Shown: positions 1 to 33,265, numbered from the stretch's first letter. The stretch: DNA of 35,188 nt from Burkholderiales bacterium (GCA_027457185.1 DAIDTN010000136.1:1-35188), one strand, 5' to 3'. A program made the numbers and translations. The notes: generated from the sequence alone by a model not told the origin.

Positions 1-3000
1 CTTCACGGCGTGCGAGCGGCTGGCTGATCCACCATGCGATCGCTGGCGAGGCAATCCACAGGAACAGAATCGGTCCCGCCATTTGCAGCGTGGCCGGCGT
101 CGATTCGGCCAGATAGCCAGCCGCGGCGATGGCGAGTGCCGGTGCGATCCACATCGATTGGTAGCAGGCGGCGAGGCCGGTGCGATCGGCGCGATCAGGG
201 CGGCCCGAGGGAGCCCATTCCAGCAGCTGTTTCTGCGTGACCATCACGCGCCAGTGGGTGCGCAGGATCGCGTCCAGGCTGAAGTATGCCTCGTAGGGCA
301 GACATGCAAGTGCGAGCACTGCTTGCGCAAAGTGCCCGAGCGCCGAGCGCAATACGGCGGCGGCGTGCTGAGCGGGCTGCAGGTCATCCGGCTTGCGCAA
401 CAGGTTAAGCATCAGGGCAATCAGGGGCGGAACCAGCATGATGCCGATCACCACCAGGCTCCAGAACCAGCTTGGTGACAAAACGGTCCAGCCCAGCAGC
501 AACAGGAGCGTCAATGCCGCGGGTACGAGACTGCGCCGCATGTTGTCGAAGATTTTCCACTGGGACAGTGCCGAGAGCGGGTTGCGCTGCCGCCCGGCGG
601 CGGAATCGGCGCCGTTGCCGGGTACGCGCGGCAACAGCCACGAGGCAATCTGCCAGTCACCGCGGATCCAGCGGTGGCGGCGGTTCACGTCGGCGCTGTA
701 GCTGGGCGGATATTCCTCGTACAACTGCACATCGCTTAGCAGCGCGGCGCGTGCATGACAGCCTTCCAGCAGGTCGTGACTGAGTATCCGGTTTTCGGGA
801 AAACGCCCCCTGAGCGATCGCTCGAACGCATCGACGTCATAGATGCCTTTGCCGATGAACGAGCCCTCGCCGAACAGGTCCTGGTAGACGTCGGAGACGG
901 CGCGCGTATAAGGGGCGATGCCGGGTTCGCTGCCGAACAGTCGCGCATAGCGCGACCGGTTGGTGCCCGGAAGGCTCACCGCCACGCGCGGCTGCAGGAT
1001 GCCGTAGCCTCCGCTTACCCGCCGCTGCTTTTCGTCGAAGTGCGCGCGATTCAGCGGATGCGCCATCGCGCCGACGAACTGGCGCGCCGAATCGCGCGGC
1101 AGCTGCGTATCCACATCCAGGGTAATAACGTACTTTACGCCGGACAATACCTCGGTCGGGCCGACGACCAGCGAGAAACATTCCTGCCCGCCGCCGCGCA
1201 GCAGGAAATTCAAATCCGCCAGCTTTCCTCGCTTGCGCTCGTAACCCATCCATAGATGTTCCTGGGGATTCCAGCGGCGCGGGCGGTGGAACAGGAAAAA
1301 GGCGTCGCCTTTGACGCCGCTTTCGGCGCTCCTGTACTTTTCATTCAGTTCTTCGATCCTGGTCCTCGCCAGAAGCAACAGCGCCCGGTCCTCTGGCAGT
1401 GTCTCCTCGTGCGCGTCGCAAAAATCGGTCAGCAGGCCGAACTTCAGTTGCTCATCCCGGTTCGCAAGGAATCGGACCTCAAGCGCTTCGATCAGATCCT
1501 CGATGTTTTGCGCGCTGGTGAGGATGGCCGGAACCACAACCAGCGTGCGGCAGTCCGGGGGGATTCCACTGGAGAAGTCCAGACGCGGCAGCGTACGCGG
1601 CGTTGCGAGCACGGTTGCCGCCCAGTTGACCAGCGCGATGGCCAAATGACCGGTGCAGAAGAGCAGCAGGATCGCTATCGGTGCAAGTAACCAGCCATGC
1701 AGCCCGCCCGCCTGCGCCTTCGCCAGCAAAGCGTCGGAAAAAACCAGTGTCAGCAGCACGGTCGCGCCCAGGGAAAGAGGCAAAGCAAACCTGCCGCAGG
1801 TTCGCTGCAGCGCCTCGGCGATCGACAAGCGCACCTGTGCCGCGCGTTTGAGCTGTGACAGGCCCTTGTCGATAAGGTAATAACCCACGTGCGCAGTTCT
1901 ATCGCCACTGCCGCGGGCAGCGACTCTAGCCAGCGCGCCGGCCGCGCCTTCGTGCGCCAGCTGAATCGCTTTGCGCGCGACCTCGCCTTCGGACAGACGG
2001 CTGCCCTTCGCGGTCTCCTCGACTGCGTGCCGGTAGCGATCGCGGGTGGCGAAATCCATCCGGGCGTAGACCCCGGCCGGATCCTGCCGAAGCTTCTGCT
2101 CGACGCCGCTCATGGTTTCGACGAACTCGCGCCAGTCCATCGCGCCGAGAAAGCGCAAACTGCCGATGCTGTTCGCGATCGATACCTGCACGGAGGCCTG
2201 CTTTTGGGTTTCCGACTGCACCAGCTGTTCGATCGTCAGTCCGGACTCGGATAGCCGCTGCTCGATCCAGGTCAGCGGTAATGCCAGAGCGGGGCTCTGG
2301 CCCTGCAGGCGTCGCGCAAGTTCGGCGACAAACGAACTGACCATGGGTGGGTTCGATCGCGCCATGTCCGATACCACCAGGATCAGGCTTTTGGGATCTT
2401 GTTCGGCGACTTCCATCATCTGGTCCGCCCAGGCGTCGGCGCGATCCCGGTCGATGGTGCTCGCCACCTCGCGAGCGCCGACGCGGCGCAGGTTCTCGAT
2501 CAGAGCCAGGCGCAGCATGATGGGAATCGCCCACAATTCGCCCAACTTGAGTGCGGTGATCTGCTGGTAGGCGGTGACGAAGCGGCTCAGGCTCTCCGGA
2601 TCTACCCGGCCGTCGCCGTGAGCGATCGCCTCAAGCGCAATGTCATACACGCGCGGCAGCCCGGCCGACGGGCCCAGAGCCAGGCGCGGAAGTTCCCTGC
2701 TGTAGCCCTTAGGCAAATGGCGTTTTGCCGTGCGTATCTGCTCTTCGATCAGATAGAAATTATCGAGCAGCCATTCACCTGCCGGCGAAATCCGGCGGTT
2801 GGCCTTGCCCTGCGTCGTCAGAAGTTTATAGGCTTGCAGCAGAACGTCTGCATTCTCGGCCAGCCGCGAGAGGAGCTTATCCGATCCGCGTTGCAAGCCC
2901 AGCCGGTGCGATCCCGCCAGGGACTTGCCGTGCTGTTCCATCTGTTCGGCACCAAACAGCTCCGCTCGCAACGGCTGTGCGTCACCGGCGGGCTGTGCTC

Positions 3001-9752: not shown

Positions 9753-9827
9753 TTTTCGGCGCATCGTTCTAAAAAGACCGGCTTGGCACAGATCGTCCGT
9801 CAATTTCGCTGAAGAAAGGATGCCCGC

Positions 9828-9980
9828 ATGAATATCCACCTGGAACTCGCTCCACTGATATCGCTGATCGCGGGGATTCTGATCCTCATCATTCCCCGGC
9901 TGCTGAACTATATCGTCGCGCTTTATATGATTATCATCGGGCTGATCGGGCTTTTCGGTGGCGGCACTTTTCATCTCTGA
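9828..9980 (+). CDS. DUF3096 small membrane protein (50 aa)
   Basis: Below the track's length cut-off; found by hand. Sequence is MNIHLELAPLISLIAGILILIIPRLLNYIVALYMIIIGLIGLFGGGTFHL, which matches the DUF3096 pattern I remember. An AAGGA Shine-Dalgarno lies about 9 nt upstream. TGA stop. Confidence 0.7.
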   Translation: MNIHLELAPLISLIAGILILIIPRLLNYIVALYMIIIGLIGLFGGGTFHL

Positions 9981-10040
9981 CCAGGAAATGGCCGCGGCAA
10001 GGGCGGAAGCTCCGCCCCGATTGCGGCGCCATAGTTTCCT

Positions 10041-10382
10041 ATGCTGGTGACATTTCATAGCAAGGCGTGGAGCAGCATCACCATGTTCGGCGATGTCGCG
10101 GTGACGCTGCTGAAGATGGCGGGGCACAGCGGCACGGTGCCGGGCGCGCTGCTCGCCGGCGACATTCCTGCCGCGCTTGCACGCCTCGAACACGCAGCCG
10201 TCGCCGGCGCGGAAGAAGCGGGCAAAGCAAGCGTTCGGCCAGACGACGACGAGGATTCGCCGCCGGTAGGGCTCGGCCTGCGCGCCTATCCGCTGGTTCA
10301 GTTGCTAACCGCCGCGGCGGCGCAGGGATGCGACGTCATGTGGGAACGGGACCAGCCGTCGGTTAACAGCCCGATCGGCTAA
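10041..10382 (+). CDS. DUF1840 domain protein
   Basis: The N-terminus MLVTFHSKAWSSITMFGDVAVTLLKMAGHSG resembles the DUF1840 signature (MLxxFKSKAxxxVxMFGDVA..LL..xG). TAA stop. Convergent with the EAL gene. Confidence 0.65.
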   Translation: MLVTFHSKAWSSITMFGDVAVTLLKMAGHSGTVPGALLAGDIPAALARLEHAAVAGAEEAGKASVRPDDDEDSPPVGLGLRAYPLVQLLTAAAAQGCDVMWERDQPSVNSPIG

Positions 10383-10420
10383 CAACGCGCCGCCCGGCGT
10401 GCATGATCGACGCTTCATCG

Positions 10421-13400
10421 TTATTTGCCACCGGCAGGCGGCGCAAGCAGAAATTTTGCCTCGAACACTTCGCTCGGCACCGCTTTGCTGAACAGGAATC
10501 CCTGCATTTCGTCGCAGCTCAGTACGCGGAGCAGGCGCGATTGCTCCTCAGTTTCGACGCCCTCTGCCACCACCTTGACCTTGAGCGAATGCGCCAGGTT
10601 GATGATGGTGGACACCAATGCCAATCCCTCCGGTCCGCCCGTCATCTCGATCACGAACGAGCGGTCTATTTTCAGCGTGTCCACCGGCAGCTTGGCGAGA
10701 TAGCTGAGCGAGGAGAAGCCGGTACCGAAGTCGTCGATGGCGATGGTTACGCCCAGGGCGCGGATCGCCTGCAGGCTGGCGATACTGAGCTTGATGTCCG
10801 CCATGATCAGGCTTTCGGTGATTTCCAGTTCCAGTCCGGCCGCCGCGTGCGCGTCGATGCCGATGGCATGCCCGATCTCGGCGATAAAGCCGCGATTGCG
10901 CAATTGCAGCGGCGACACGTTCACTGCGATGCGTACCGCGGGCAGCCCTGCGGCGCGCCAGCGCAGGTAGTCTGCGATGGCCTGGTGCAGCGCCCAGCGC
11001 CCGACGTCATAGATCAATCCGGTTTCTTCCAGGATCGGGATGAACCGTCCCGGCGGCACCAGGCCGGTGCGCGGATCGTTCCAGCGGATCAGCGCCTCGG
11101 CGCCGGTGAGTTTGCCGCTTACGAGGTTCACCTTGGGTTGGTAGTGGAGCACGAACTCTTCGTTGTCGAGCGCCTGGCGCAGCTGGTTTTCCAGGGTGAG
11201 CTTGCCGGCCACCGCTTCGGTCATTTTCTGGGTGTAAAACAGGTAGCGCTCGCCGCTCGCCTTGGCCTTCTTCAGCGCGGCCTCGGCGTTCCTGAGCAAG
11301 GTCTCGGCATCGGCGCCGTCCTCCGGGAATACCGCTGCGCCGACCCTGGCGGAGACCCGGAATACCGCATCGTTCAGGCGGAACGGATGCTCCAGAAATG
11401 CCGCCATCGTTTTCTCAAGAAGCCGCGTGACGTCGCCTTCCCGCCTTACTTGCGGCAGCACCATGGCAAAATGGTCCGCACCGATCCGTGCCAGCAGGCT
11501 GGCGTCCCCAGCGTTGTGCGTCAGCCACTCCGCCACCTGCCGCAGCAGCGCGTCGCCGGCCGGCCGGCCGAGGCCGTCGTTGATGTTCTTGAACCGCTCC
11601 AGATCGATCAGGAACACGGCCAGCTCGTGTCCGCCGCTGACGGCACTGCGCACGTACTGCGCCACCCGCTCGAGAAACAGGCTGCGGTTCGCCAGGCCGG
11701 TGAGCACATCGTAGTAAGCGAGGTAATCGAGCCGCTCCTGCTTGTCGATGTGATCGATCGCGAATGCGATGTCGCCGGCCAATTCCGTCAACAGCTTCAA
11801 TTCGTCTTCATGGAAGAATTCAATCTCGCTGGCGTACAGCGCGAGAACGCCTACCGCTTCATCCGAAACGAGCAGCGGCAAAACCGCCATCGAGCGGACT
11901 CCCGCTTCGGCGTATTTCACGCCGAACAAAACCCTGGGGTCGCGCTGCGAATCGTTGGACACTACGGCTTGTTTCTCCCTGAGCGCAAGCGCGGTCATGG
12001 TAGTGGGCGCATGCTCGCTCGATGACAGGATGCCCCTGATGACGCTCAGGAGCGCCTCGTCCTTTCCTGCCGAGGCCACCGGGACAATCTTAGTCGCGCT
12101 CTTGTCCACAATGGCGATCAAGGCCATGCGGAAGCCGCCGGCCTCGACCGCGATCCGGCACGCTTCACGGAACAGTTCGTCACGGTCGTGCACGCGCACG
12201 ATCAGCGTATTGATACCGCTGAGCACCGCATGGACGCGGTTGAGGTGTACGATCCTGTCTGCCGCTTCCTTGCGTTCGGTGATGTCTTCGCCGATGCTTG
12301 CGGTTCCGATCACATCGCCGGCACCCGACCGCAGCACCGAATTGTTCCAGCGAATGAGCCGGCGCTCGCCCGAACGCGTGAGGATCTCGTTCTCGTGATG
12401 CCTTGCTTCGGGCAGGTTGGCTAGGAGCGCCGCGAAAAAGGAGTCCTTCAAATCGGCAATTTCTGGCGGTATAAAACGCTCGAACCAATTTCGCCCGATG
12501 ACTTCCTCGTAGCGCCAACCGCTCAGGCGGAGCAGGTACCCGTTGCAATAGGTAATCCGCCCTTCGCGGTCGAGCATCATGGAAACCAGCTCCACATTTC
12601 CCAGCAGGTCCCTAAAGCGCCGCTCGCTTTCGCGCAGTTCCTGCGCGGCGTGCTTGCGTTTGGTGATGTCGCGAAAATACCAGACGCGTCCGTAATATTT
12701 GCGATCCGCTCCAATGACCGGAGCGGAATACCGGTCGATTATCCGTCCATCTCTCAGCGATACCTCGTCGCGACTCTTGTCGTCGTGATGCTCGTGCAGA
12801 TACTGGACCCGGGCGACAAATGCCTCCGAATTCTCGACTTGGTCAGCCACTGATTGGAGTACGGGCGCATCCAGACGCGCGCTGACGAGCTGCGGAGACA
12901 GCCGCCACAGATCGATGAATTGTTGATTGTAGGAGATGATGTGTCCGTTCTCATCGACCACCAGCATGGCGTCGAGCGAGGTCTCCTGTAGCGTCTGAAG
13001 CATCGTGTTCTTGAACCGTATTTCCTCCGCCGCCTGCTTGCGCTCGGTGATGTCTTCGGCCATTCCTATAATGTCCTGTGGAAGCCCATTCTTATCGCGC
13101 AACATTGTGACAAAGAGCCTTGCCCAGATCGGATTGCCATTTTTATGGACATATCTTTTTTCCATGCTATACGCGAATATCTTTCCTTCCAATAATTCCG
13201 TGAATTGATTCACATCGTTATCAACATCCTCGGGATACGTAAAATCACTAAACTTCATTTGCGACAATTCAGCATTGCTATAGCCAACCATTTTGGACAA
13301 AGGTGAATTGGAAACGATCGGGTGGCCTTGCATATCAAGCAGCGCCATCGCGATCGGAGCTTGATCAAAGATGGCTCTAAAGCGTTCTTCACTATCCCGA

Positions 13401-14368
13401 ACTAGGCGCTCGGCTTGCTTGCGCTCAGTGATGTCCGTACCGACACCGCGGTAGCCCAGGAATGTGCCGGAGGCATCGAACACAGGATCGCCACTGATCG
13501 CAATATGCCGTTCTGTGCCATTGCCCCCGAGCCGCGACAGCTCGAAATCGCGGAACGGAAGATGCGCGTCGAGCACGTCCCGATGCGCCTGCCAGCCGGC
13601 TGCGTCGGGCGAAAGATTCGGAATCTCCCAGCGACGCTCGCCAATCTGCGCGCCGCGCTGGAATACTGCAACCATGCTTCGCTTCTTGCTCGCAGAGGCG
13701 CGCGCCGTGAGTCGGTGTTCGGCGTCGCTCTCCCAGTAGAAGTCGGAAGACATCGCGGTCAGTGCGCGAAAGCGTGCCTCGCTCTCGCGCAACGCTTCCT
13801 CAGCACGCTTGCGCTCGATGATGTTGAGGTGCATGACGACGACGCCATTCGGATGGTCATCAGTCAGGGGTGTCACGGTCATCAGGAACCAGCGCTGTTC
13901 CGCGGGCGAATGACAGGGATATTCGAGCGAAAAGCTCTTTTGGGCGCCAGCCAGCACCGAGCGAATGCCGGCGGCGGCCTGGTGTGCTTCCGATTCGCCG
14001 TCTCCCCGCGCGCGGTCGCATACCTCGAGGTAGTTCATGCCGATCGCATATGCCGGGCTTTGGAGCGCATTGGCATCCGCAAATCGCCGCCACGCGTCGT
14101 TCACTGTGGTGATGCGCCCCTGAATATCGAGCAAGACGATATGCGCTGGCAGCGCGTTGAGGATGGCCGCCTGCTTCGCCGTCTCGCTGACACGCAACTG
14201 TTCCTGGGCGTGCCGCAACACAAACGGCCGGCCGTCCGAGTCCGCCACCGTATCGACCTCGCCTGCCGTCAGCTCCTCCAGGCGTTGTCCGGTTTGGTGC
14301 AGCGGCTGGATTAACGCGGAAATTTCCTCGTCTGCGTCCACCGCAGGGGATGGCATTGCAGGTCTCAT
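10421..14368 (-). CDS. multi-sensor c-di-GMP protein: PAS x5 - GAF - degenerate GGDEF (GADHF) - EAL (probable phosphodiesterase)
   Basis: 1315 aa from the ATG at 14368, which overlaps the kaiB TGA (ATGA). Five PAS/PAC repeats are each closed by ..DITERK-type linkers, followed by a GAF region (..FRMALIAIVD..). The GGDEF-domain signature reads RIGADHF (11468-11482). The EAL domain looks intact: EAL at 11090-11098, ELEITES, DDFGTG, KIDRSF, AEGVETEEQ, QGF. The track's 14689 start is a spurious extension across kaiB. Confidence 0.9.
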   Translation of the reverse strand: MRPAMPSPAVDADEEISALIQPLHQTGQRLEELTAGEVDTVADSDGRPFVLRHAQEQLRVSETAKQAAILNALPAHIVLLDIQGRITTVNDAWRRFADANALQSPAYAIGMNYLEVCDRARGDGESEAHQAAAGIRSVLAGAQKSFSLEYPCHSPAEQRWFLMTVTPLTDDHPNGVVVMHLNIIERKRAEEALRESEARFRALTAMSSDFYWESDAEHRLTARASASKKRSMVAVFQRGAQIGERRWEIPNLSPDAAGWQAHRDVLDAHLPFRDFELSRLGGNGTERHIAISGDPVFDASGTFLGYRGVGTDITERKQAERLVRDSEERFRAIFDQAPIAMALLDMQGHPIVSNSPLSKMVGYSNAELSQMKFSDFTYPEDVDNDVNQFTELLEGKIFAYSMEKRYVHKNGNPIWARLFVTMLRDKNGLPQDIIGMAEDITERKQAAEEIRFKNTMLQTLQETSLDAMLVVDENGHIISYNQQFIDLWRLSPQLVSARLDAPVLQSVADQVENSEAFVARVQYLHEHHDDKSRDEVSLRDGRIIDRYSAPVIGADRKYYGRVWYFRDITKRKHAAQELRESERRFRDLLGNVELVSMMLDREGRITYCNGYLLRLSGWRYEEVIGRNWFERFIPPEIADLKDSFFAALLANLPEARHHENEILTRSGERRLIRWNNSVLRSGAGDVIGTASIGEDITERKEAADRIVHLNRVHAVLSGINTLIVRVHDRDELFREACRIAVEAGGFRMALIAIVDKSATKIVPVASAGKDEALLSVIRGILSSSEHAPTTMTALALREKQAVVSNDSQRDPRVLFGVKYAEAGVRSMAVLPLLVSDEAVGVLALYASEIEFFHEDELKLLTELAGDIAFAIDHIDKQERLDYLAYYDVLTGLANRSLFLERVAQYVRSAVSGGHELAVFLIDLERFKNINDGLGRPAGDALLRQVAEWLTHNAGDASLLARIGADHFAMVLPQVRREGDVTRLLEKTMAAFLEHPFRLNDAVFRVSARVGAAVFPEDGADAETLLRNAEAALKKAKASGERYLFYTQKMTEAVAGKLTLENQLRQALDNEEFVLHYQPKVNLVSGKLTGAEALIRWNDPRTGLVPPGRFIPILEETGLIYDVGRWALHQAIADYLRWRAAGLPAVRIAVNVSPLQLRNRGFIAEIGHAIGIDAHAAAGLELEITESLIMADIKLSIASLQAIRALGVTIAIDDFGTGFSSLSYLAKLPVDTLKIDRSFVIEMTGGPEGLALVSTIINLAHSLKVKVVAEGVETEEQSRLLRVLSCDEMQGFLFSKAVPSEVFEAKFLLAPPAGGK

Positions 14369-14655
14369 GCTGCGATGGCCTCCAGCCCCAAAGCCTGCAA
14401 CATCGGCTGCGTTTGGCTGAGTGCGCCGACAATGCGTCGAGGGGGGAACGGCGCGAGCTTGACCAGCGTCGGCGTCATGAAGATGCCGTCGGCCAGCGCG
14501 CGCCCCGGTTCCTGGAATACATACACGACTTCGATTTCGTGCCGTTCCGGAAGGTGTGTCCGGCAAAGCGCCGTGAGGTTGGCAAGCGCCTGCACGGAGT
14601 TGAGCGCGTCGCCCGCGACATAGAGCCGGAACTTGAACTTCGTGCGTCGACTCAT
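14365..14655 (-). CDS. kaiB: circadian clock protein KaiB homologue
   Basis: 96 aa. FKFRLYVAGDALNSVQALANL.. / ..DGIFMTPTLVKLAPFPPRRIVGALS aligns with cyanobacterial KaiB (LKLYVAGNTPNSVRAL.. / ILATPTLAKVLPLPVRRIIGDLS). Its ATG overlaps the kaiC TGA, and its TGA overlaps the next ATG. Confidence 0.9.
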   Translation of the reverse strand: MSRRTKFKFRLYVAGDALNSVQALANLTALCRTHLPERHEIEVVYVFQEPGRALADGIFMTPTLVKLAPFPPRRIVGALSQTQPMLQALGLEAIAA

Positions 14656-16397
14656 GGTCGGCTCGCTTTCCGCCCCGGAATCGCCGCATCGGCGCCGCGC
14701 AACTCCTTCATCTGGGTGCGGCCGCGCGACAACTCGCCCTTATCGCTTTGCGTGGTGCGCACCAGCAAGGCTTTCTCCACCTGCTTCGCCACGAGTTCGG
14801 TCTGCAGCGACTTCAGTCGCACATTGAGTTCGGCCTCCTCGGCATCGAGTTTGACGCGCTTCAGCTTCGCGGCGACTTCCGCGGCCTCGTGCACGCCGCG
14901 CTCGGCGCGTTCCTTTTCCCAGCGCAGCGTGCCCATCAACACCTCGCCGCCCGCGGTGTAGGTGTCGGCCAGGGTCACGCCGGCGTCGCTCAGGATCAGC
15001 TCGCGCACTTGGTTCGAATGCGTCGTGCCGCGGGACTTGACGATGGACAGACCGCGGTTGCGTTCACCGGCCTGTATCAGGTAATTGAGGTGGATCCAGG
15101 TGTCCACCAGCGCCGAGATCTGCAGCTGCGAGCCGCCTTCCCCCTGGCCGGACATCTCGTCGAGCAGGCTGGTGCAGACCAGGGTGGTGCCTTCGCCCTT
15201 GGACCAGTCGATCAGGCGGTCCGCCACGCTCTGCGTGCTCAGGTCGTTGCCGGACTTGGACCAGGCGGACACCGGATCGATCACCACGCAGCGGGCCCGA
15301 TGCTCTTTCGCCAGCGCCTTGATGCGCACCAGATAGGTCTCGGCGCTGCCGGTGATGGCGCGGGCCGAGATCATGCGCAGGCACCCGCTTGCGACGTAAC
15401 GATCCAGATGGATGCCGACGGAGAGCAGGTTGCGGATCACTTCGGTACTGTTCGTATCGAAGCAGACGAACATGGTGCGCTAGCCGCGGCGGCAGGCCGC
15501 TTCGGCGAACGCACCGCTCAGGGTCGTCTTGGCCGTGCCGGAGAAGCCGGTGATGAGTACGCTGGCGCCGCGATAGTAGCCGCCGCCGAGCATGGTGTCG
15601 AGCCGCGCGACGCCGCTGGACACGCGCTCGTTGCTCACCTTGGCATCGACGCGGCTCAGCGTGTGCGCGACGGCGACCTCGAATCCGCTGTTGCCGATCA
15701 GGAATGCCGACTCATTCTCATCGAAGCCGGAGCCGCGATACTTCTGCACGCGCAGACTGCGTTGCGACACGCCCAGCACCACGCTGTGGTTGAGGATCAC
15801 GGCGCAGTCCACCATGAATTGCATGAAGCCGAACGGCTGCTGGCTGATCGGGCTGGTATCGTCCGCTCCGGACTTGAGGGTAATGACGCCCGTCAGTTCG
15901 TGCGCCAGTAACCACGCATGCAGCCGGTAGATCTCGCGCCTTTCCGCCGCCGTGTCGGGCAAGAGCGCCAAGACGACGTCCAGCGCATCGAACACGATGC
16001 GCTTCGCCCCCATTTCCCGGGTCTTGACCTCCAGCGCCGCCAGCATCCCGCCCAGATCGAAGTCCCCGGACTGGACCAGGTCGGGCAGCGGCTGGGCGTC
16101 CATGAAAAAGAGCTTGTTCCGCCGCAATTCCGGAAGTTTCCAGCCGAAGCTGTCCGCATTGGCCGCGATGCGCTTCGAGCTCTCCTCGAACGCGACGAAT
16201 ATTCCCGGCTCCTTGCACGCGCGCGCGCCATGCGCCAGGAACTGCAGCGCGAGCACGGTCTTGCCCGAACCCGGTCCGCCCACCAGCAGCGTGGTGCGGC
16301 CGTGCGGCAAGCCGCCGCCGGTGATTTCATCGAAACCGGCGATGCCGGTCGGCGCCTTAATCGGCGTTTTCACGAGTGGCGAACGGACCGATTTCAT
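14652..16397 (-). pseudogene. kaiC: KaiC-like double-domain ATPase (KaiC2-type with long C-terminal coiled-coil tail), interrupted by one in-frame TAG at 15480-15482
   Basis: One reading frame is split into track ORFs 15480..16673 (true ATG at 16397, GGGAGG Shine-Dalgarno upstream) and 14652..15473. The CI domain has GGPGSGKT, FVAFEES and RIVFDALD. The CII domain has GFSGTAKT, then ..AACRRG*RTMFVCFDTNS.., RCVVIDPVSA and QISALVDTWIHLNY..VKSRGTTHSNQVREL. The tail is about 90 aa of heptad-like sequence (EKERAERGVHEAAEVAAKLKRVKLDAEEAELNVRLKSLQTELVAKQVEK). I cannot decide from the sequence whether it is a pseudogene, a sequence error or a read-through gene. Confidence 0.85.
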
Positions 16398-16540
16398 CTT
16401 GCCTCCCGGCGAAACACTGGAACGGTCCCAGAGGCGGCCCACGCGGGATGATTCGCGGAAGGGGCGAGAAGGACCGGCGGCGAGGGAAATGGCCGTGGTT
16501 CCCCTCCTTCTGGCAGTGTCCCCCCTTTTCACCGTAGCGG

Positions 16541-16560
16541 TATGTGCGCTAGCCCACATA
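16541..16560 (+). repeat. intergenic palindromic element, copy 8 (TATGTGCGCTAGCCCACATA)
   Basis: Near-perfect 20-bp palindrome about 145-165 nt upstream of the kaiC ATG. It has the same TATGTGCGC left arm as the other copies. Confidence 0.55.
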
Positions 16561-16706
16561 GAACGCCGCTGCACTCCGCTGCCCGCGGCAGAGCCCAGTA
16601 AGCAGGACCTGATCATTGCGGCAGGCACCGCTTTGTTCAACCCATGGCCGAATATTTGGCTGACTCGAACCAAAGCCGGGCGCGGCTATGCGCGGCACTT
16701 TGCCCT

Positions 16707-16740
16707 TATGCGCGCCAGCGCACGGAAAGCACCGAGCGCG
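16707..16740 (+). repeat. intergenic palindromic element, copy 5 (TATGCGCGCCAGCGCACGGAAAGCACCGAGCGCG)
   Basis: Same core, 83-116 nt upstream of the ATG at 16823. A degenerate half copy (CTATGCGCGGCAC) lies just upstream at 16686. Confidence 0.55.
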
Positions 16741-16822
16741 GGAAGCACAATCAGCGCAGCGATCGAGGCCCTGCGGTAACGCCGTTACCGACTTGGGTTT
16801 AGAGACCACGAAGAGAGGCGAA

Positions 16823-17260
16823 ATGAAGACGCAAACGAACAGGCTTCTGCATCGGCCTTTGTTGGTCGGAAGCGTTGCGGCGATCTTGATCAGCGGCATT
16901 GCCATTGCCTCCGTTGCGATCTCGGCCCAGAGCTTTGACGGCGTCCTCGCAGGCGCGCCGCCGGCCGATACGTCCGCGCTGCACACCATCGCGGCAGCCG
17001 CCGGCCATGTCTACAGCTGTCCCGATTGCGGGGTGATCGAGTCGACGCGGGACATTGGAGGTCCCGGCGAAAAGACCGAAGTCGGCGCGTCCGATCGGAG
17101 TGCGGCCGGCAAGCGCGCCGAAATCGAGGCGAAGCCCATGCGGAACTACGAAATCACCATTCGCATGCAGGACGGATCCATGCGCGTGATCAAGGACCCC
17201 AGATCGGCGCGATGGCGGCAGGGGGAGCCGGTAACCGTCATAGCCGGCGTGGATCAATGA
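16823..17260 (+). CDS. hypothetical membrane-anchored protein with CxxC motif
   Basis: 145 aa from the ATG at 16823 (GAGAGG Shine-Dalgarno). It starts MKTQTNRLLHRPLLVGSVAAILISGIAIASVAI (TM anchor), then has CPDCGVIES and a beta-rich tail (YEITIRMQDGSMRVIKD..WRQGEPVTVIAG). The stop overlaps the next ATG (ATGA). I cannot name a family with confidence. Confidence 0.6.
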   Translation: MKTQTNRLLHRPLLVGSVAAILISGIAIASVAISAQSFDGVLAGAPPADTSALHTIAAAAGHVYSCPDCGVIESTRDIGGPGEKTEVGASDRSAAGKRAEIEAKPMRNYEITIRMQDGSMRVIKDPRSARWRQGEPVTVIAGVDQ

Positions 17261-18426
17261 GTTCGGCATCCGGCGAGGCCGTCAAGGAGATTGCGTCCGA
17301 TCCGGCTGTCGCCGCCGCGGAAGCAGTCGCGCTGGGGGATCGCCGGCGCAACACCAGTATGAGCCTGGCCATGAGCGTTCTGGCGGCCATCGCGTTGGTC
17401 GCCGCACTGTACCTGGCGCGCGCATTCTTCGTGCCCTTGCTGATCGGCATTCTGGGAAGCTACGCGCTGCGCCCGCTGGTCGACTGGCTCGAGGCGCATT
17501 ACATTCCGCGAGCTGCGGGCGCAGCGTTGGTGCTGTTCACCTTGGTCGGCGGACTATTGTGGGTGGGCTATTCCCTGAGAGACGATGCCGCAGCGATGAT
17601 CGAAAAGCTGCCCGAGGCCGCGCGCAAATTTCGACAGACAATGACCGACGCGCGCGCCGGCGGCAGGACGCCGCTGCAGAACATTCAGGAGGCCGCCAAC
17701 GAGATTCAGGGGGCCACGGCGGAGGCCGCACTGAGGCCGGGGAGGCGGCTTGCCGCGGTTAGCGCGCCGGAGCCTTCCGTTTGGCTGCGCGACTATGCGA
17801 TCGCGCAGTCGCGTCTGCTGATCAGCGTTGCGGCGCAGGCGCCGATCGTGCTGTTGCTCGCCTATTTCCTGCTGGCTTCCGGAGTGCATTTCCGGCGCAA
17901 GCTGGTGCAGTTCGTCGGTCCTTCGCTGTCGCGCAAGAAGGACGCCGTGCGGATTCTCGAACAAATCGACGTGCAGGTTCAGCGCTACCTGCTCACGATG
18001 CTCCTGTCTAATACTCTTGTCGCAATTGGCACCTGGCTCGCGTTCGAGGCGCTCGGCGTGGAGAATGCCGGCGTCTGGGGCGCTGCAGCGGGCGTGCTGC
18101 ATTTCATCCCCTATCTGGGCTCGGCGCTGATGGTGCTCGGAAGCGGGGTCGCCGCCTTTCTCCAGTTTGGATCGGCACTGCATGCGCTGAGCATCGCCGG
18201 CGCGGCGCTGCTGGTCGCGGGCGCGATTGGCCATTTGTTCATGACCTGGCTGCAGAGCCGGGCCGCGCGCGTGAATGCCGCCGTGCTGTTCATCGCCTTG
18301 CTGTTCTTCGGCTGGCTGTGGGGCATCTGGGGGCTGTTGCTCGGCGCGCCGCTGGTTGCGATCGTCAAAGTGGTCTGCGACCGCGTCGAAACGCTCAAAC
18401 CAGTCGGTGAACTGCTTGGGCGCTAA
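17257..18426 (+). CDS. AI-2E family transporter (PerM/UPF0118)
   Basis: 389 aa and multi-TM. The C-terminal ..LFFGWLWGIWGLLLGAPLVAIVKVVCD.. is the family hallmark. The start is set to the ATG at 17257, which overlaps the upstream stop. A later Met (MSLAMSV) is possible. Confidence 0.8.
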   Translation: MSSASGEAVKEIASDPAVAAAEAVALGDRRRNTSMSLAMSVLAAIALVAALYLARAFFVPLLIGILGSYALRPLVDWLEAHYIPRAAGAALVLFTLVGGLLWVGYSLRDDAAAMIEKLPEAARKFRQTMTDARAGGRTPLQNIQEAANEIQGATAEAALRPGRRLAAVSAPEPSVWLRDYAIAQSRLLISVAAQAPIVLLLAYFLLASGVHFRRKLVQFVGPSLSRKKDAVRILEQIDVQVQRYLLTMLLSNTLVAIGTWLAFEALGVENAGVWGAAAGVLHFIPYLGSALMVLGSGVAAFLQFGSALHALSIAGAALLVAGAIGHLFMTWLQSRAARVNAAVLFIALLFFGWLWGIWGLLLGAPLVAIVKVVCDRVETLKPVGELLGR

Positions 18427-21939: not shown

Positions 21940-23811
21940 ATGGCACATGGACATCATTCCGCCGCCTCAGCCGCCGACGCAGGGCCGCCCGTGTCCAGAG
22001 CGCGACCCAACGAATGGCGCGTGGTCGGCTTGCTGCTGCCCTACCTGTCGGAATATAAATGGCGGGTGCTGGTCGCTCTGATATTCCTCACCTCGGCCAA
22101 ACTCGCCAACGTCGGCGTGCCGCTGGTATTGAAGTCAGTCGTCGATGCGCTGTCGCCCGCGCAACAGGTGCTGGCGCTGCCGCTGGCGCTGCTGGTCGCC
22201 TATGGCGCGCTGCGCCTCTCGACCGTGCTGTTCGCCGAACTGCGCGACGTGGTATTCGTGCGGGTGACGCAGCGCGCCATCCGCCGCGTCGCGCTCACCG
22301 TGTTCCGCCATCTGCACAGCCTGAGCCTGCGCTTCCATCTGGATCGCCAGACCGGCGGCGTGTCGCGCGACATCTAGCGCGGCACGCGCGGCATTTCGAC
22401 GCTGCTGTCCTACATGCTGTTTTCCATCATTCCGGTGATCCTGGAATTCAGCCTGGTGGCGGTGGTGCTGCTGACCAAGTTCGACTGGCGCTTCGCCGCC
22501 GTCACCTTCGCCGCGGTCGCGATTTACATGTTTTTCACCGTCAGCGTCACCGAGTGGCGCATGGACATCCGCCGCCAGGCCAACGAGCTCGATTCGAAGG
22601 CCAACACCCGCGCCATCGACAGCCTGCTCAATTACGAGACCGTGAAATATTTCAACAACGAGGAGTACGAGGCGCGGCGCTACGACGACAACCTGCGCAA
22701 ATACGAATCGGCCGCGGTGAAAAACGAAATATCGCTCGGGCTGTTGAATGTCGGCCAGAGTTGTGTCATCGCGATCGCCGTGACGCTGCTGATGATCCTG
22801 GCGGCCGAGGGCGTGGTGAACAAGACGCTGACGCTGGGCGATCTGGTGCTGATCAACGGCCTGCTGATCCAGCTCTATATTCCGCTCAATTTTCTCGGCG
22901 TGGTGTACCGCGAGATCAAGCAGGCGCTGATCGACACCGACAGGATGTTCCGGCTGCTGGAGCAGAACCGGGAAATCCAGGACAGCCCCGACGCCTTGCC
23001 GCTCGCCTCGGGCAGCTGCTCGATTCGCTTCGAGCACGTGGATTTTTCCTACGATCCGAAGCGGCAGATCCTGTTCGACGTGTCGTTCGACGTGCCTGCG
23101 GGCAGCAAGGTCGCCGTGGTCGGGCACTCGGGCGCGGGCAAGTCCACGCTGGCGCGACTGCTGTACCGTTTCTATGACGTCAGCCGCGGCGCCATCGTCA
23201 TCAACGGTAGCGACATCCGCGCGCTGCAGCAATCCAGCCTGCGCGGTGCCATCGGCATCGTGCCGCAGGATACGGTGCTGTTCAACGACAGCATTTTCTA
23301 CAACATCCAGTGTGGCCGGCCCGAGGCGACGCGCGAGGAGGTGTTCGAAGCGGCGCGGACGGCGCATATCCATGAGTTCATCGAAAGCCTGCCCGACAAA
23401 TACGAGGCGCGGGTGGGCGAGCGCGGCCTGAAGCTCTCGGGCGGGGAAAAGCAGCGCGTCGCCATCGCGCGCGCCATCCTCAAGAATCCCGCCATCCTGA
23501 TTTTCGACGAAGCCACCTCGGCGCTCGATTCCGAGACGGAAAAATCGATTCAGGGCGAACTCGCGCGCATCGCCCAGGGGCATACCACGCTGGTGATCGC
23601 GCATCGCCTGTCCACCGTGATGGATGCGGACCAGATTCTGGTCATGGAGGCGGGGCGCATCATCGAGCGTGGCGGCCATCGCGAACTGCTGGAGCGCAAT
23701 GGCGCTTACGCCCAGATGTGGGCGCTGCAGCAGCAGGAGGAGTCGCAGCAGCAGCGGGCGAAAGTCGCGGACTTGCCGCCGACCATGGGCGTTCTTCAAA
23801 TTTCGCCTTAG
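21940..23811 (+). pseudogene. Atm1/HMT1-type ABC exporter (fused permease-ATPase), interrupted by one in-frame TAG at 22375-22377
   Basis: Track ORFs 21940..22377 and 22414..23811 are in the same frame, reading ..RFHLDRQTGGVSRDI*RGTRGISTLLSYMLFSIIPVILEF... The ..NYETVKYFNNEEYE.. motif is typical of the Atm1 family. The NBD is intact: GHSGAGKST, LSGGEKQR, ILIFDEATSALD, IAHRL. Confidence 0.85.
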
Positions 23812-24823: not shown

Positions 24824-24984
24824 GGCCCGGGGGCGGCGTAGGGGCATCCGTAACGCAACGAGGGAACCCGGGTGGGATCGGCAGGGTTCCACCCCGACCT
24901 CGGCTCCTTGTGCTTGCCTGAGTCGGACCGCAGCAAAAAATGACGTTTGCTGCGGATTTCAAGCAATCTGCTGTCGAGGGACCG

Positions 24985-25971
24985 ATGGCACATCCGCAGC
25001 AGCGCCGAGACCTTGGGGTAGTTCGCTTCTACAATTTTCTGCCTGAAGCCACCTCCTTCCTGAGCGAGGTGCTGACCGGGCTGGCATTGCCGCGCAAGGC
25101 GCTGCCGCCGAAGTATTTCTACGACGCGCGCGGCTGCAGCCTGTTCGAACAGATCTGCGAACTGCCCGAGTACTATCCCACGCGCACCGAGCTCGCCATC
25201 ATGCGCGAGCATTCTGCCGCGATGGCGAAGTTCCTCGGCCCGGACTGCCAGCTGATCGAGTTCGGCAGCGGCTCGAGCCGAAAGACGAGCATCCTGATCG
25301 AACAACTGCGGCCACCGTTATACGTGCCCATCGATATCGCCGGCGAGGCGATGCAGGCGGCGGCTGCCGGCCTCGTTCAGGACTTTCCCTGGCTCAACAT
25401 CAACGGCGTGTGCGCCGACTACACCAGGGCGCTGACGCTACCGGTGTTCGTGGGCGTGCCGATCCGGAAAAAAGCGGTGTACTTCCCCGGGTCGACGATC
25501 GGCAATTTCACCCCGGAAGAGGCGATCGAATTCCTGCAGCTCGCCCGGCGCATGGTCGGCGCGGGCGGCGCGCTGCTGATCGGTGTCGACCTGAAAAAAG
25601 ACAAACCGGTGCTGGACGCCGCCTACAACGACGCGGCGGGCGTGACCGCCGCGTTCAACCTCAACTTGCTCGCGCGCATCAACCGCGAGCTGGGCGGGGA
25701 TTTCCAGCTGCAGCGATTTCGCCACCGGGCCTTCTACGACGAGGCCCTGGGCCGGATCGAGATGCACGTCGAAAGCCTGGCGGCGCAGTTCGTGCATGTA
25801 GGCGGCGAGCGCTTCAGCTTCGGCCAGGGCGAAACCATCCTTACCGAGATTTCCTGCAAGTACAGCGTGGATGAATTCCGCGCGGTGGCGCAACGCGCCG
25901 GCTTCGCGCCCGGTCATACCTGGACCGACGCCGCCAGACTGTTCAGCGTTCACGGGATGATCGCCGTCTAG
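24985..25971 (+). CDS. egtD: EgtD-like L-histidine N-alpha-methyltransferase (methyltransferase-33 family)
   Basis: ..LPPKYFYDARGCSLFEQICELPEYYPTRTE.., EFGSGSSRKT, FPGSTIGNFTPEEA, AAYNDAAGVTAAFNLNLLARINREL and ILTEISCKY match the EgtD family. I prefer the ATG at 24985 (GAGGGA Shine-Dalgarno) over the track's 24940, which has none. Confidence 0.7.
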   Translation: MAHPQQRRDLGVVRFYNFLPEATSFLSEVLTGLALPRKALPPKYFYDARGCSLFEQICELPEYYPTRTELAIMREHSAAMAKFLGPDCQLIEFGSGSSRKTSILIEQLRPPLYVPIDIAGEAMQAAAAGLVQDFPWLNINGVCADYTRALTLPVFVGVPIRKKAVYFPGSTIGNFTPEEAIEFLQLARRMVGAGGALLIGVDLKKDKPVLDAAYNDAAGVTAAFNLNLLARINRELGGDFQLQRFRHRAFYDEALGRIEMHVESLAAQFVHVGGERFSFGQGETILTEISCKYSVDEFRAVAQRAGFAPGHTWTDAARLFSVHGMIAV

Positions 25972-26062: not shown

Positions 26063-28621
26063 ATGCTATCGGGCACTAGATTCAATCTCGAGGTCAATCC
26101 GAAAATTCCGCAGAGGCTGGCGCGCCTGGAGGAGCTGGCCAACAATCTTTGGTACAGCTGGGACATCATGCCCACGCGGGCGCTGTTTTCGCGCCTGGAT
26201 CCGGTCTTGTGGAACACGGTGGGACACAGCCCCAAGGCCCTGCTCAAGCGTATCGATCAGCGGTGCCTGACCGACGCGGCCGAAGACAAGCTGTTTATCG
26301 ACAACTACAATCGCGTGCTTTCGGCATACGACAGCTATCATGGCGAGCAGACGCGCCGCGACGCCGCGGAGGCGCCGCTCGCGCAAACCGAGCTGGTTGC
26401 CTATTTCTGCGCAGAGTTCGGATTCCACGAAAGCCTGCCGATCTATTCGGGCGGCCTCGGCATACTTGCCGGCGATCACTGCAAGACCGCGAGCGACATG
26501 CGCCTGCCTTTCGTCGGCGTCGGGCTGCTCTACCGGCAGGGATATTTCTCCCAGACCATCGACAGCCACGGCAATCAAAGGGCTACCTACCTGGATTCGG
26601 ATTTCGAGGATCTGCCGATCACGCCGGTGCAGCGCGAGGACAGTTCCGAATTGAAAGTCGGCGTCGAGTTTCCCGGGCGCGAGGTGACGGCGAAAGTGTG
26701 GCGCGCGCGCGTCGGCAACGTGAACCTGTACCTGCTCGACACCGACATCGAGGAAAACACGGCGCACGACCGCAATATCGCGCACCAGCTCTACGGCGGC
26801 GATCGCACCACCCGCATTGAGCAGGAGATCGTGCTCGGCGTCGGCGGAGTGCGCGCGCTCGCCGCGCTCGGACTCAAGCCCACCGTCTGGCACATCAATG
26901 AAGGGCATGCGGCGTTCCTGATTCTGGAGCGCCTGCGCACCCTGGTGCACCAGGGCCTGGATTTTGCCGGTGCGCTAGAGGCAGTGGCATGCAACACGGC
27001 GTTTACCACCCACACACCAGTGCCCGCGGGACATGATCATTTCTCCGCGCAAATGTTGCTGCACTATTTTCAAGGCTATTGCGACGAGCTGGGGGTTCCC
27101 GGCGAACAGCTGCTGTCGCTCGGGATGGGGCCGGGCGCGAGCGAATTCAATATGACCACCCTGGCCGTGCGCGGCTCGCGCTTCCACAACGGAGTTTCCA
27201 AGATTCATGGCGGCGTTTCCGCGCGCATATTGGCGGACCTGTGGCCGCAGATTCCGCCGGAAGAAAATCCGATCACATCGATCACCAACGGCGTGCACGT
27301 GCCGACCTTCCTCTCGCCGGAATGGGCCGAAGCATTCGACCATTTCCTCGGTTACGGCTGGAGCCGCAGGCTGGGCGACCAGAGTTGCTGGGACCAGATC
27401 AACGAAGTGCCGGATCATGTTTTCTGGAGCACCCGCCAGCACCTGAAGTCGCAGTTGATGCACCTGGTGCGCTATCGCCTGCGCGAGCAGAACGCGCGCA
27501 ACCAGGGCAGCGAAGCGCACCTGGACCGTCTTCTGAGCCTGTGCGATCCGGACAACCCGACGGTGCTGATCATTGGCTTCGGCCGCCGCTTCGCGACCTA
27601 CAAGCGGGCGACGCTGCTGTTCGAGAATCTCGACTGGCTGCGTCAGTTGCTCGGCGATCCCTTGCGTCCGGTGCTGTTTCTGTTTGCCGGCAAGGCGCAC
27701 CCGGCCGACGTGCCCGGGCAGGACTTGATCAGGCGGGTGATGCAGGTGGCGCAGATGCCCGAGTTCGAAGGCAAGATACTGCTGATCGAAGGCTATGACC
27801 TGCGCCTCGGCCGGCGCATGGTTTCCGGCGTCGATGTCTGGCTCAACAATCCGGTGTACCCGCTCGAGGCCTCCGGCACCTCGGGTATGAAGGCGGCGAT
27901 GAATGGCGTAGTCAATCTGTCGGTGCTCGACGGCTGGTGGGGCGAAGGCTACGACGGCACCAACGGCTGGGCGATCAAACCGGCCGCTGCCGGCCTGGAC
28001 GAGGCGAGCCGGAATCGGGAGGAAGTGCGCACCTTGTACGAAATCCTGCAGGACCACGTCATTCCGCTTTACTACAAGCGCGAAAGCTGCGGCTACTCGC
28101 CCGAATGGGTGAAGCTGGCGAAGCGCTCCATCTCCAGCCTTATGCCGCGCTTCAATTCTGCGCGCATGCTGGGGGAATACGTCGCCAAATGCTATCTGCC
28201 GGCCGCGCGCCAGGGCCGGCTCTATGCCGAGAACCAGTTCGAGGTCGCGCGCTCGATTGCCGCCTGGAAGTCGCGCGTGCGCCGGGCTTGGCCGGGGGTG
28301 ACGATACGCAGGCTGGATATGCCGAAGAAGCGCATCGACTTCGGCGACAGCGTGCGCATCGAAGCAACGCTGAGTTTGAACCACTTGAATCCGGAAGACG
28401 TGGCGGTGGAACTGCTGATGAGTCGTATCGGCGCGCCGGACGAAGAAGAGACGACGAGCTACCGCTTCGTCGCGCAAGGCGCCGATGCAAGTGGCGAGCA
28501 CCATTTTGTTCTGGAGCTCGCGCCGGAGCTGTGCGGAAGGCTGGATATGCGCATCCGCGCCTATCCCTGCCATGGGTCGCTGACCCATCCGCTCGAATTA
28601 GGGCTGATGATCTGGGCTTGA
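26063..28621 (+). CDS. glgP: alpha-glucan phosphorylase (GT35, DUF3417-type N-terminus)
   Basis: 852 aa with ..LANNLWYSWD.., YFCAEFGFHESLPIYSGGLGILAGDH, TNGVH and EASGTSGMKAAMNGV (PLP-Lys region). Confidence 0.9.
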   Translation: MLSGTRFNLEVNPKIPQRLARLEELANNLWYSWDIMPTRALFSRLDPVLWNTVGHSPKALLKRIDQRCLTDAAEDKLFIDNYNRVLSAYDSYHGEQTRRDAAEAPLAQTELVAYFCAEFGFHESLPIYSGGLGILAGDHCKTASDMRLPFVGVGLLYRQGYFSQTIDSHGNQRATYLDSDFEDLPITPVQREDSSELKVGVEFPGREVTAKVWRARVGNVNLYLLDTDIEENTAHDRNIAHQLYGGDRTTRIEQEIVLGVGGVRALAALGLKPTVWHINEGHAAFLILERLRTLVHQGLDFAGALEAVACNTAFTTHTPVPAGHDHFSAQMLLHYFQGYCDELGVPGEQLLSLGMGPGASEFNMTTLAVRGSRFHNGVSKIHGGVSARILADLWPQIPPEENPITSITNGVHVPTFLSPEWAEAFDHFLGYGWSRRLGDQSCWDQINEVPDHVFWSTRQHLKSQLMHLVRYRLREQNARNQGSEAHLDRLLSLCDPDNPTVLIIGFGRRFATYKRATLLFENLDWLRQLLGDPLRPVLFLFAGKAHPADVPGQDLIRRVMQVAQMPEFEGKILLIEGYDLRLGRRMVSGVDVWLNNPVYPLEASGTSGMKAAMNGVVNLSVLDGWWGEGYDGTNGWAIKPAAAGLDEASRNREEVRTLYEILQDHVIPLYYKRESCGYSPEWVKLAKRSISSLMPRFNSARMLGEYVAKCYLPAARQGRLYAENQFEVARSIAAWKSRVRRAWPGVTIRRLDMPKKRIDFGDSVRIEATLSLNHLNPEDVAVELLMSRIGAPDEEETTSYRFVAQGADASGEHHFVLELAPELCGRLDMRIRAYPCHGSLTHPLELGLMIWA

Positions 28622-28713
28622 ATACCGGCTGGGCCGCGCTTGGCGCGTGCCCCGGCGCAGCCGCAACGCAAGGTGGAGCGATGCGCAATATTAATCCGCG
28701 GTTGAACGATGGC

Positions 28714-30207: not shown

Positions 30208-30305
30208 GGAGGTGGATCGCGGCGCCGTCAGAAGGCATTGCTGAAGGGCGCAATATTAGCAGGGGTTCGGATTTCCGACCCAGTGCTCGCATTGCCTGGA
30301 TTGGC

Positions 30306-31292: not shown

Positions 31293-31406
31293 ACCCTGGA
31301 AATTTCGCGCCCCGGTCCCCAGGTGACATGATAATTGTCAATTGTCGGCCCGCCCTTGGCCGCTATGCTCTGATCGAGTGGTAACTGCACGAACAGGAGG
31401 TCGGCC

Positions 31407-31691: not shown

Positions 31692-31751
31692 CGCCGCGCT
31701 GGGCGAGGCGCGGGTTCTAAGTCCGGCGCGAAAGAGTGGAGCTTAGGATCG

Positions 31752-33107: not shown

Positions 33108-33265
33108 AGGGATGCGCCAAGTGCGGGACGGGAACGAAGATGCTGCGCCGGTTTCCTCCGCCCCCTTGCATATTCCAGAAGCCGGAGGCGCTTGCGGGTG
33201 AAACAGCATGTGAACGTTGATCGGCGCCTGGCCGGTCCGGTCGCGTTTCAATTGGCGCCCTGCGG

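Follow-up and report, generated by a model that had tools for sequence, protein, structure and literature searches.

To our knowledge, the known or proposed outputs of Kai systems outside cyanobacteria are histidine kinases, and the sole link to cyclic di-GMP (c-di-GMP) is KidA, by pull-down in S. elongatus. Here we describe a three-gene cassette, kaiC-kaiB-sensor, on the minus strand of a 35,188-nt stretch of DNA from a Burkholderiales bacterium (GCA_027457185.1 DAIDTN010000136.1:1-35188; this whole stretch is called the window). The sensor is a large multidomain protein whose first ~190 residues we call the N-module.

Several described systems come close. The purple-bacterial KaiBC hourglass (R. 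sphaeroides 8DBA, 8FWI and 8FWJ; Rhodopseudomonas palustris) shares the kaiC-kaiB order and the absence of kaiA, and the purple-bacterial kaiBC operon also contains a PAS-domain gene (PMC6627678). The R. sphaeroides-type clade of KaiA-less KaiC proteins with an extended tail has been described as a primordial hourglass (Pitsawong et al. 2023, PMC10076222). In S. elongatus, KidA (Synpcc7942_1859) is a 4xPAS-GGDEF-EAL protein whose PAS-ABC segment binds fold-switched KaiB directly; PAS-ABC alone reproduces the period phenotype, the GGDEF and EAL domains being dispensable for it, and the authors proposed that KidA connects the clock with c-di-GMP, and noted that outside cyanobacteria kaiBC often has PAS genes as neighbours (PMC9478674). 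Pseudomonas putida, Pseudomonas protegens and Ramlibacter (KaiC/Nt_HK) likewise encode a signalling protein next to kaiC: the N-terminal PAS domain of the KaiC-adjacent kinase of P. putida is sufficient to bind KaiC (bioRxiv 10.1101/2022.01.26.477890), and the kaiC-kinase pair of Ramlibacter is co-transcribed (PMC3164672). Literature on KaiC or KaiB together with c-di-GMP, GGDEF/EAL, diguanylate or phosphodiesterase yielded no description of a kaiC-kaiB-sensor cassette. The initial annotation of the window had called c-di-GMP an unusual route for a Kai system; the cassette itself is indeed absent from the literature searched, but the route has precedents in KidA (PMC9478674) and in a PAS_2PAC_GGDEF_EAL neighbour of kaiC that is listed, uncommented, in a 2011 supplementary figure legend (PMC3164672).

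Compared with these, the window locus reads from its sequence as a KaiA-less, coiled-coil-tailed KaiCB with a non-canonical CII domain, and its partner as KidA-like in architecture but operonic, GAF-containing and predicted to be cyclase-dead. Well over a hundred bacteria, most of them non-photosynthetic, carry this three-gene unit. We consider it probable that the locus is one copy of a widespread signalling cassette in which the N-module docks on KaiB/KaiC and couples the Kai state to a phosphodiesterase. Coordinates of the features are collected in Table 1.

Both gene junctions are ATGA overlaps, read directly from the sequence. The overlap at 14652-14655 joins the kaiC TGA to the kaiB ATG, that at 14365-14368 joins the kaiB TGA to the sensor ATG, and the chained, operon-type arrangement claimed in the initial annotation is exact at both sites. 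GGAGG lies 10 nt 5′ of the sensor ATG. Among the loci gathered in the surveys below, the kaiB stop and the partner start overlap by 4 nt in 131 of 147 (ATGA in 110, GTGA in 20, TTGA in 1), and because of this we place the sensor start at 14368 and not at 14689. The longer sensor open reading frame (ORF) of a mechanical call, which runs to 14689, was rejected; its extension overlaps kaiB in another frame. Of the 142 loci in which the kaiC/kaiB junction was read, 83 show a 4-nt overlap and 52 a gap of 6-8 nt. A scan of 9800-17300 for promoter and terminator consensus sequences gave none above shuffled expectation, and none internal at the junctions, so that a single transcript is neither proved nor disproved.

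Conservation was surveyed in two directions. For the forward survey, a KaiC alignment was run against one genome per species and the best 80 of 552 relatives were kept; wherever the DNA reaches far enough, nearly all loci carry kaiC followed by kaiB and by a gene whose first ~200 residues match those of the window sensor. The reverse survey comprises 80 metagenome loci found solely by peptide patterns from the sensor's N-terminal region (first 200 residues). It returned kaiB directly upstream of the N-module in 78 of the 80, and kaiC as well in 62 of the 68 with enough sequence. The adjacency is thus not unique to this strain. By record titles the hosts are Betaproteobacteria (Burkholderiales, Sulfuritalea, Sterolibacterium, Aromatoleum, Thiobacillus, Gallionella, Nitrotoga, Rhodoferax, Pelomonas, Duganella), Gammaproteobacteria (Methylomonas, Steroidobacteraceae, Rhodanobacter) and metagenome-assembled genomes labelled Acidobacteriota, Verrucomicrobiota and Gemmatimonadaceae. 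Most are non-phototrophs: methanotrophs, oxidisers of nitrite, iron and sulfur, and soil Burkholderiales.

Such an arrangement could in principle reflect co-expression only, through a shared regulon or selfish co-transfer, with no physical interaction between sensor and Kai proteins. PAS domains are found everywhere, and for the N-module Foldseek gives only generic PAS folds. Nevertheless, this specific N-terminal module occurs almost only directly after kaiB, and the linkage persists through swaps of the output domain and in four or more phyla as named in the record titles. A plasmid collection held only distant PAS relatives of the module (at most 35% identity over its full length), all lacking Kai neighbours, which argues that the linkage is specific to the N-module. 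We regard co-expression alone as highly improbable.

A few loci depart from the common layout. N-module genes at L081 5894-6606 and L102 2844-4141, the latter one of the two kaiB-less exceptions in the reverse survey, have no kaiB upstream; a short kaiC 5′ remnant persists just before each, which suggests that kaiC-kaiB was deleted from an ancestral cassette. L041 (12051-17331) has kaiB, a PAS-GGDEF-EAL gene with no recognisable N-module and then two tandem N-module genes, and appears to be rearranged or duplicated. L084 (1-12981; ENA ERZ25039517 contig_62612) has ~89% DNA identity to the window and the order AI-2E transporter ... kaiC-kaiB-sensor ... MlaE/F/D. Indels there, probably long-read assembly errors, split kaiC and the sensor gene into several ORFs each, and a gene pair encoding an extra PAS histidine kinase and a HATPase-REC protein is inserted upstream of kaiC.

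The N-module was modelled with AlphaFold2 (AF2; mean predicted local distance difference test score, pLDDT, 74). The model has a helix at residues 10-34, a short hairpin at 40-50, a second helix at 51-72, a PAS fold at 75-182 and a linker helix; pLDDT is 84-95 over most of the PAS core and lower in two loops. No Pfam family matches the cap (sensor residues 1-70), and a PDB sequence search with an N-module profile found no relative, only generic PAS matches to the second PAS domain. The same profile was searched against 1.84 billion representative proteins, and the best 150 matches were inspected for match position. Most begin at the profile's first positions and fall among the protein's first ~260 residues, so that the module is N-terminal; the exceptions are mostly long multi-PAS proteins with an internal match. 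Generic multi-PAS proteins inflate the number of matches at E ≤ 1e-30 (14,063), which is not usable as a family size. Nearly all proteins retrieved with the N-module by word-indexed search were short and partial, and they were uninformative on architectures. In two metagenome loci from the Joint Genome Institute (L082 5659-6582 and L083 5659-6582), a stand-alone 193-aa N-module directly follows kaiB. No kaiC is nearby in this variant cassette, which encodes, in this order, REC, REC-PAS-GGDEF-EAL, KaiB and the N-module protein; it looks as if adaptor and c-di-GMP enzyme had been split into separate genes.

Behind the N-module, the output varies. The 96 complete N-module genes comprise 71 with GGDEF and EAL, 16 with a histidine kinase (mostly hybrid), 2 with kinase and EAL, 1 with GGDEF only and 6 that are short or unclassified: the N-module is constant and the output exchangeable. 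Giant partners of ~1780-1790 aa are encoded at L055 11471-16813 (Aromatoleum diolicum 22Lin) and L019 12030-17402. By Pfam scan the former has the N-module, several PAS domains, HisKA-HATPase, two REC domains, Hpt and EAL, combining a phosphorelay and predicted c-di-GMP hydrolysis in one protein; L019 was classed likewise from tblastn matches alone.

In the window, the sensor has five PAS stretches followed by GAF, GGDEF and EAL domains (Pfam and NCBIfam). The PAS matches are to Pfam PAS_4 (five stretches), PAS_9, PAS and PAS_8 and to TIGR00229 (four stretches). At the position of the GG[DE]EF active-site signature of diguanylate cyclases it reads GADHF (residues 963-967, window 11468-11482), with the guanine-contacting KxxND kept. 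The EAL motifs are complete (EALIRW, ELEITES, DDFGTGFSS, KID, EGVETEEQ and QG), and by these the sensor is a predicted c-di-GMP phosphodiesterase. The domains and motif states listed in the initial annotation are real, and the pairing of a degenerate GGDEF with an intact EAL is conserved across relatives. Thirty-nine aligned GGDEF-EAL partners form two classes. Class 1 (29, including the window) has a degenerate signature of the [GD]AD[HQ]F type, keeps KxxND with FKNINDxLG conserved, and is 67-88% identical to the window over GGDEF-EAL; class 2 (10 of the 39) has a canonical GGDEF and about 42% identity. EAL, N, ExE, DDFG, KID, EGVE and QG are kept in the great majority of the 39 in both classes, with rare single-residue variants. 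A GAF match is present in all 49 complete class-1 genes, whose lengths of 797-1484 aa indicate that the number of middle PAS domains varies.

A degenerate base-contacting GGDEF with full EAL motifs is also the arrangement of the phosphodiesterases Caulobacter PdeA/CC3396 (Christen et al. 2005), DosP, DibA and the Tlr1612 type. The sensor is below the equivalog cut-offs, its NCBIfam matches to Tlr1612, DibA and DosP over residues ~870-1304 being sub-threshold (438 bits versus 1600, and so on), and none of those proteins is Kai-linked. In Caulobacter PdeA/CC3396 the pseudo-GGDEF is reportedly a regulatory, GTP-sensing allosteric domain. By analogy with this domain class, the GADHF domain of the sensor probably also has a regulatory, GTP-sensing role and does not act as a cyclase. 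KidA and the sensor share the order multi-PAS, GGDEF, EAL, the two being compared here by architecture and description. The kidA gene is not known to be adjacent to the kai genes in S. elongatus; the sensor gene is translationally coupled to kaiB. KidA has a catalytically competent-looking GGDEF and EAL and belongs to a KaiABC oscillator (PMC9478674), whereas the sensor has a degenerate GGDEF and a GAF domain and no KaiA accompanies it. The Pseudomonas and Ramlibacter systems differ in having no KaiB and in using phosphotransfer, while in the present cassette KaiB always lies in between and c-di-GMP hydrolysis is the main predicted output. Compared with purple bacteria, the partner is usually a pseudo-GGDEF-EAL protein and not a histidine kinase, and the hosts are mostly chemotrophs.

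Control could also run the other way, with the sensor as an input to or modulator of KaiBC: its N-terminal PAS would bind or titrate KaiB and tune KaiC cycling according to signals received by PAS2-5 and GAF, and the phosphodiesterase would be regulated independently of Kai. The period phenotype given by KidA PAS-ABC alone fits this, as do the retention of the N-module whatever the output domain and the stand-alone N-module proteins that adjoin kaiB. A pure KaiB titrator would need no enzymatic output, yet the module is fused to one in 90 of the 96 complete genes. The tight 4-nt coupling suggests a stoichiometric complex and fits either direction of control. On balance we find such an input role unlikely.

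Turning to the Kai proteins, Pfam PF06745 matches both halves of KaiC, which has two tandem KaiC/RecA-like domains; against NCBIfam PRK09302 its two pieces score 299.6 and 146.6 bits at profile positions 12-301 and 306-500. Homologues are 581 aa long and 80-95% identical. The best solved relative is R. sphaeroides 8DBA, at 341 bits versus about 246-266 for cyanobacterial KaiC. This alignment reaches query residue 551 of 581, through the coiled-coil tail; the tail is highly conserved, and the ~50-90 aa C-terminal extension aligning with it is shared with R. sphaeroides KaiC. KaiB matches Pfam PF07689 at 67 bits against a cut-off of 27 and falls below the cut-off of the NCBIfam circadian-KaiB equivalogs (55 bits versus 110). 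Its best solved relative is R. sphaeroides 8FWJ, and S. elongatus KaiB was also found. Extended tail and solved relatives agree with the purple-bacterial, KaiA-less type to which the initial annotation had assigned the kaiC-kaiB pair; no kaiA-like ORF is among the 20 other candidate window ORFs scanned with Pfam. The region aligned to the KaiB-binding R. sphaeroides KaiC is present in the window KaiC. The AF2 model of KaiB is beta1-alpha1-beta2-alpha2-beta3-(beta4)-alpha3, thioredoxin-like and resembling the fold-switched form, at modest confidence (pLDDT 52-63 in the C-terminal half).

The two KaiC domains differ in their active sites. CI is canonical; the window and almost all of the 80 aligned sequences have Walker A GGPGSGKT and VAFEE. 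In CII, Walker A is G[FLYSV][SPA]GTAKT in 80 of 80. The catalytic Glu-Glu pair of CII, E318/E319 in S. elongatus, is found in none of the 80, and a large majority have an FD[ST][DN]-type sequence in its place. At the phospho-acceptor site the window reads I-S-A; the first Ser (the S431 equivalent) is present in 80 of 80, and the second position varies among T, A, K and S (IS[TAKS]). R. sphaeroides KaiC differs in having GAGKS and FEE where this clade has GTAKT and FD[ST][DN], and the variable second phospho-site is a further difference. Because CII lacks the catalytic Glu pair clade-wide and the second phospho-site is variable, a phosphorylation-based hourglass in the present clade is an assumption and not assured; the initial annotation had spoken of a Kai hourglass.

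These features would also suit an energy or stress switch that keeps no time, with KaiC sensing ATP/ADP or stress through its CI ATPase and setting c-di-GMP hydrolysis, and no hourglass or 24-h behaviour. A similar role has been proposed for the Kai homologues of Legionella and Pseudomonas, KaiC-like proteins of Pseudomonas function in stress resistance, and the hosts of the cassette are mostly non-phototrophs. The universally kept S431 equivalent speaks for phosphorylation instead, as does retention of the coiled-coil tail, which in R. sphaeroides KaiC enables KaiA-independent autophosphorylation (PMC10076222); Asp may moreover replace Glu as a weaker base. We take this switch to be a serious possibility, though we would sooner bet against it.

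The initial annotation was right about the kaiC gene, its position and its domains, but the reading frame is interrupted: an in-frame TAG, which had been overlooked, replaces codon 306 and splits the 581 codons of the gene into pieces of 305 and 273 aa. Codon 306 is GAG or GAA in all 61 loci readable by motif scan. The 79 aligned homologues have G-E-[RH]-T at this site, and the TAG is the sole departure of the window KaiC from their ≥97% consensus. A conspecific contig (L167; GCA_009712145.1, VFSW01043345.1), which differs from the window at 17 positions in 5,614 bp aligned without gaps (99.70% identity), has GAG at codon 306 and an intact 581-aa KaiC. In KaiB, the window has D45Y (14521-14523), TAT replacing the GAT of the conspecific contigs L167, L168 and L169; this Asp is at least 90% conserved among homologues. 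Relative to the conspecific contigs, both changes are window-private G>T on the coding strand. Further in-frame TAGs occur at 22375-22377 (+), in an otherwise intact Atm1-like ABC exporter, and at 29743-29745 and 29152-29154 (-), both in an otherwise intact glycogen synthase. The residue expected at these three sites from the family motifs would be Glu, or in one case Asp. In total there are four in-frame TAGs in three otherwise intact genes, plus KaiB D45Y, within 35 kb. The five changes, three of which are read from the expected residue alone, suggest oxidative-damage (8-oxoguanine-type) or low-coverage errors, or a recent mutator burst or lineage.

Two other explanations of the TAG codons were rejected. 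Amber recoding (TAG as Glu) does not fit, TAG being the ordinary stop of 5 of 19 window genes, with no tRNA in the window and GAG in the conspecific; nor does a systematic miscall at the motif GAGCGC, of which 33 copies are still present in the window.

In this organism the locus might instead be undergoing pseudogenisation, the amber codon in kaiC being a true mutation and D45Y harmful to KaiB. Both of these window-specific changes, and the three additional TAGs in the same 35 kb, would be expected of decay. However, the window KaiC is at consensus everywhere except the TAG, no frameshift was seen, the near-identical contig has GAG, and five G:C>T:A changes at conserved acidic codons of otherwise intact genes resemble damage, low-coverage errors or a very recent mutator burst. 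We judge decay quite improbable. Since the conspecific contig has the Glu codon, the cassette is intact in the population, and the stop belongs to the present contig, as a real break or a mis-assembly, and not to the system.

In the mechanism we favour, the N-module (cap and PAS) would dock onto KaiB and/or the KaiB-KaiC complex, and docking would alter phosphodiesterase activity, so that the nucleotide state of KaiC or the KaiB-bound state would set c-di-GMP turnover; PAS2-5 and GAF may add further inputs. Docking is supported by analogy, since KidA PAS-ABC binds KaiB and the PAS domain of the P. putida kinase binds KaiC. Confidence differs among the parts. That Kai proteins and sensor are coupled functionally or physically, we hold to be quite likely; for control in the direction from Kai to phosphodiesterase we see the chances as even; genuine hour-scale timing is doubtful.

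Several points weigh against this mechanism, which as a whole would stand on synteny and motifs. CII lacks Glu-Glu and has Ala in its Walker A motif, and this KaiC may not go through the cycle of phosphorylation by which known Kai timers are defined. Foldseek places the N-module among generic PAS folds, and the module's likeness to the KidA PAS domains is at the level of architecture. Control may run either way, as the effect of KidA on the clock comes from its PAS domains and does not depend on GGDEF/EAL (PMC9478674). Finally, the window copy itself has the stop codon in kaiC and D45Y at a conserved Asp of KaiB.

A wider proposal, which we put forward tentatively, is that the N-module may be a dedicated, transferable KaiB/KaiC adaptor, and c-di-GMP hydrolysis, in place of phosphotransfer, the principal output of a large KaiA-less clade whose CII would be catalytically crippled and whose timing or state switching would depend on the CI ATPase and KaiB binding alone. 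The clade so defined would span Beta- and Gammaproteobacteria, Acidobacteriota, Verrucomicrobiota and Gemmatimonadota.

Table 1. Features of the kaiC-kaiB-sensor locus (window positions; aa, residues of the encoded protein)
Feature	Position	Strand	Basis or remark
Shine-Dalgarno-like GGGAGG	16402..16407	-	4 nt 5′ of kaiC ATG; read directly
kaiC, 581 codons, TAG-interrupted	14652..16397	-	Pfam KaiC/ATPase matches, both halves
kaiC CI domain	about 15672-16352	-	
kaiC CII domain	about 14928-15632	-	
CII Walker A variant GFSGTAKT (Ala for Gly before Lys)	15525..15548	-	alignment
In-frame TAG, kaiC codon 306	15480..15482	-	context ...ACRRG*RTMF...; Glu in homologues
CII FDTN replacing catalytic Glu-Glu pair	15450..15461	-	R. 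sphaeroides KaiC FEEA at aligned position
kaiC C-terminal coiled-coil tail	about 14655-14927	-	
kaiB, 96 aa	14365..14655	-	Pfam KaiB
Sensor gene, 1315 aa	10421..14368	-	
N-module, sensor aa 1-190	13799..14368	-	helical cap + PAS1
N-module helical cap, aa 10-72	14153-14339	-	AF2 model
PAS1, aa 75-182	13823-14146	-	AF2 model
PAS2-PAS5, aa about 195-705, variable sensory middle	12254..13786	-	Pfam, TIGR00229
GAF, aa 727-872	11753..12190	-	Pfam GAF_2, E = 6e-22
Degenerate GGDEF, aa 884-1040	11249..11719	-	Pfam GGDEF, E = 1e-35
EAL, aa 1061-1295	10484..11188	-	Pfam EAL, E = 3e-73

The genes around the cassette, by Pfam scan, are Mla lipid-transport genes, a DUF1840 gene, an AI-2E transporter, a Crp-type regulator and glycogen genes. 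The 20 other candidate window ORFs that were scanned gave zero Pfam matches to HisKA, HATPase_c or Response_reg, in line with the earlier remark that no SasA-, CikA- or RpaA-like gene is present in the window. An Rfam scan of the window found zero RNA families. Divergent from kaiC is a 190-aa ORF (16688-17260, +) with no Pfam match. At 24940-25971 (+), a stand-alone EgtD-type histidine-specific methyltransferase (Methyltransf_33) adjoins a glycogen/alpha-glucan cluster (26063-35002) made up of a DUF3417-phosphorylase, the broken glycogen synthase, a glucokinase, a GlgC-like nucleotidyltransferase and a GH57 gene. In window 1-2400, criteria based on GC content at third codon positions give no convincing gene call.

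The role of KaiBC and its way of signalling outside cyanobacteria are a standing question, on which this cassette bears while overturning nothing established. It offers a conserved operon-encoded partner with an easily assayed predicted read-out, c-di-GMP hydrolysis, and a ~190-aa candidate docking module. Culturable carriers include Methylomonas methanica, M. montana, Pelomonas sp. Root1237, Duganella sp., Aromatoleum diolicum and Candidatus Nitrotoga. The KaiC clade, with its non-canonical CII, can also serve to test whether Kai signalling needs the phosphorylation cycle. If the proposed coupling is true, decisions on biofilm and motility in many chemotrophs of soil and fresh water would take direct input from daily or energy-state timing.

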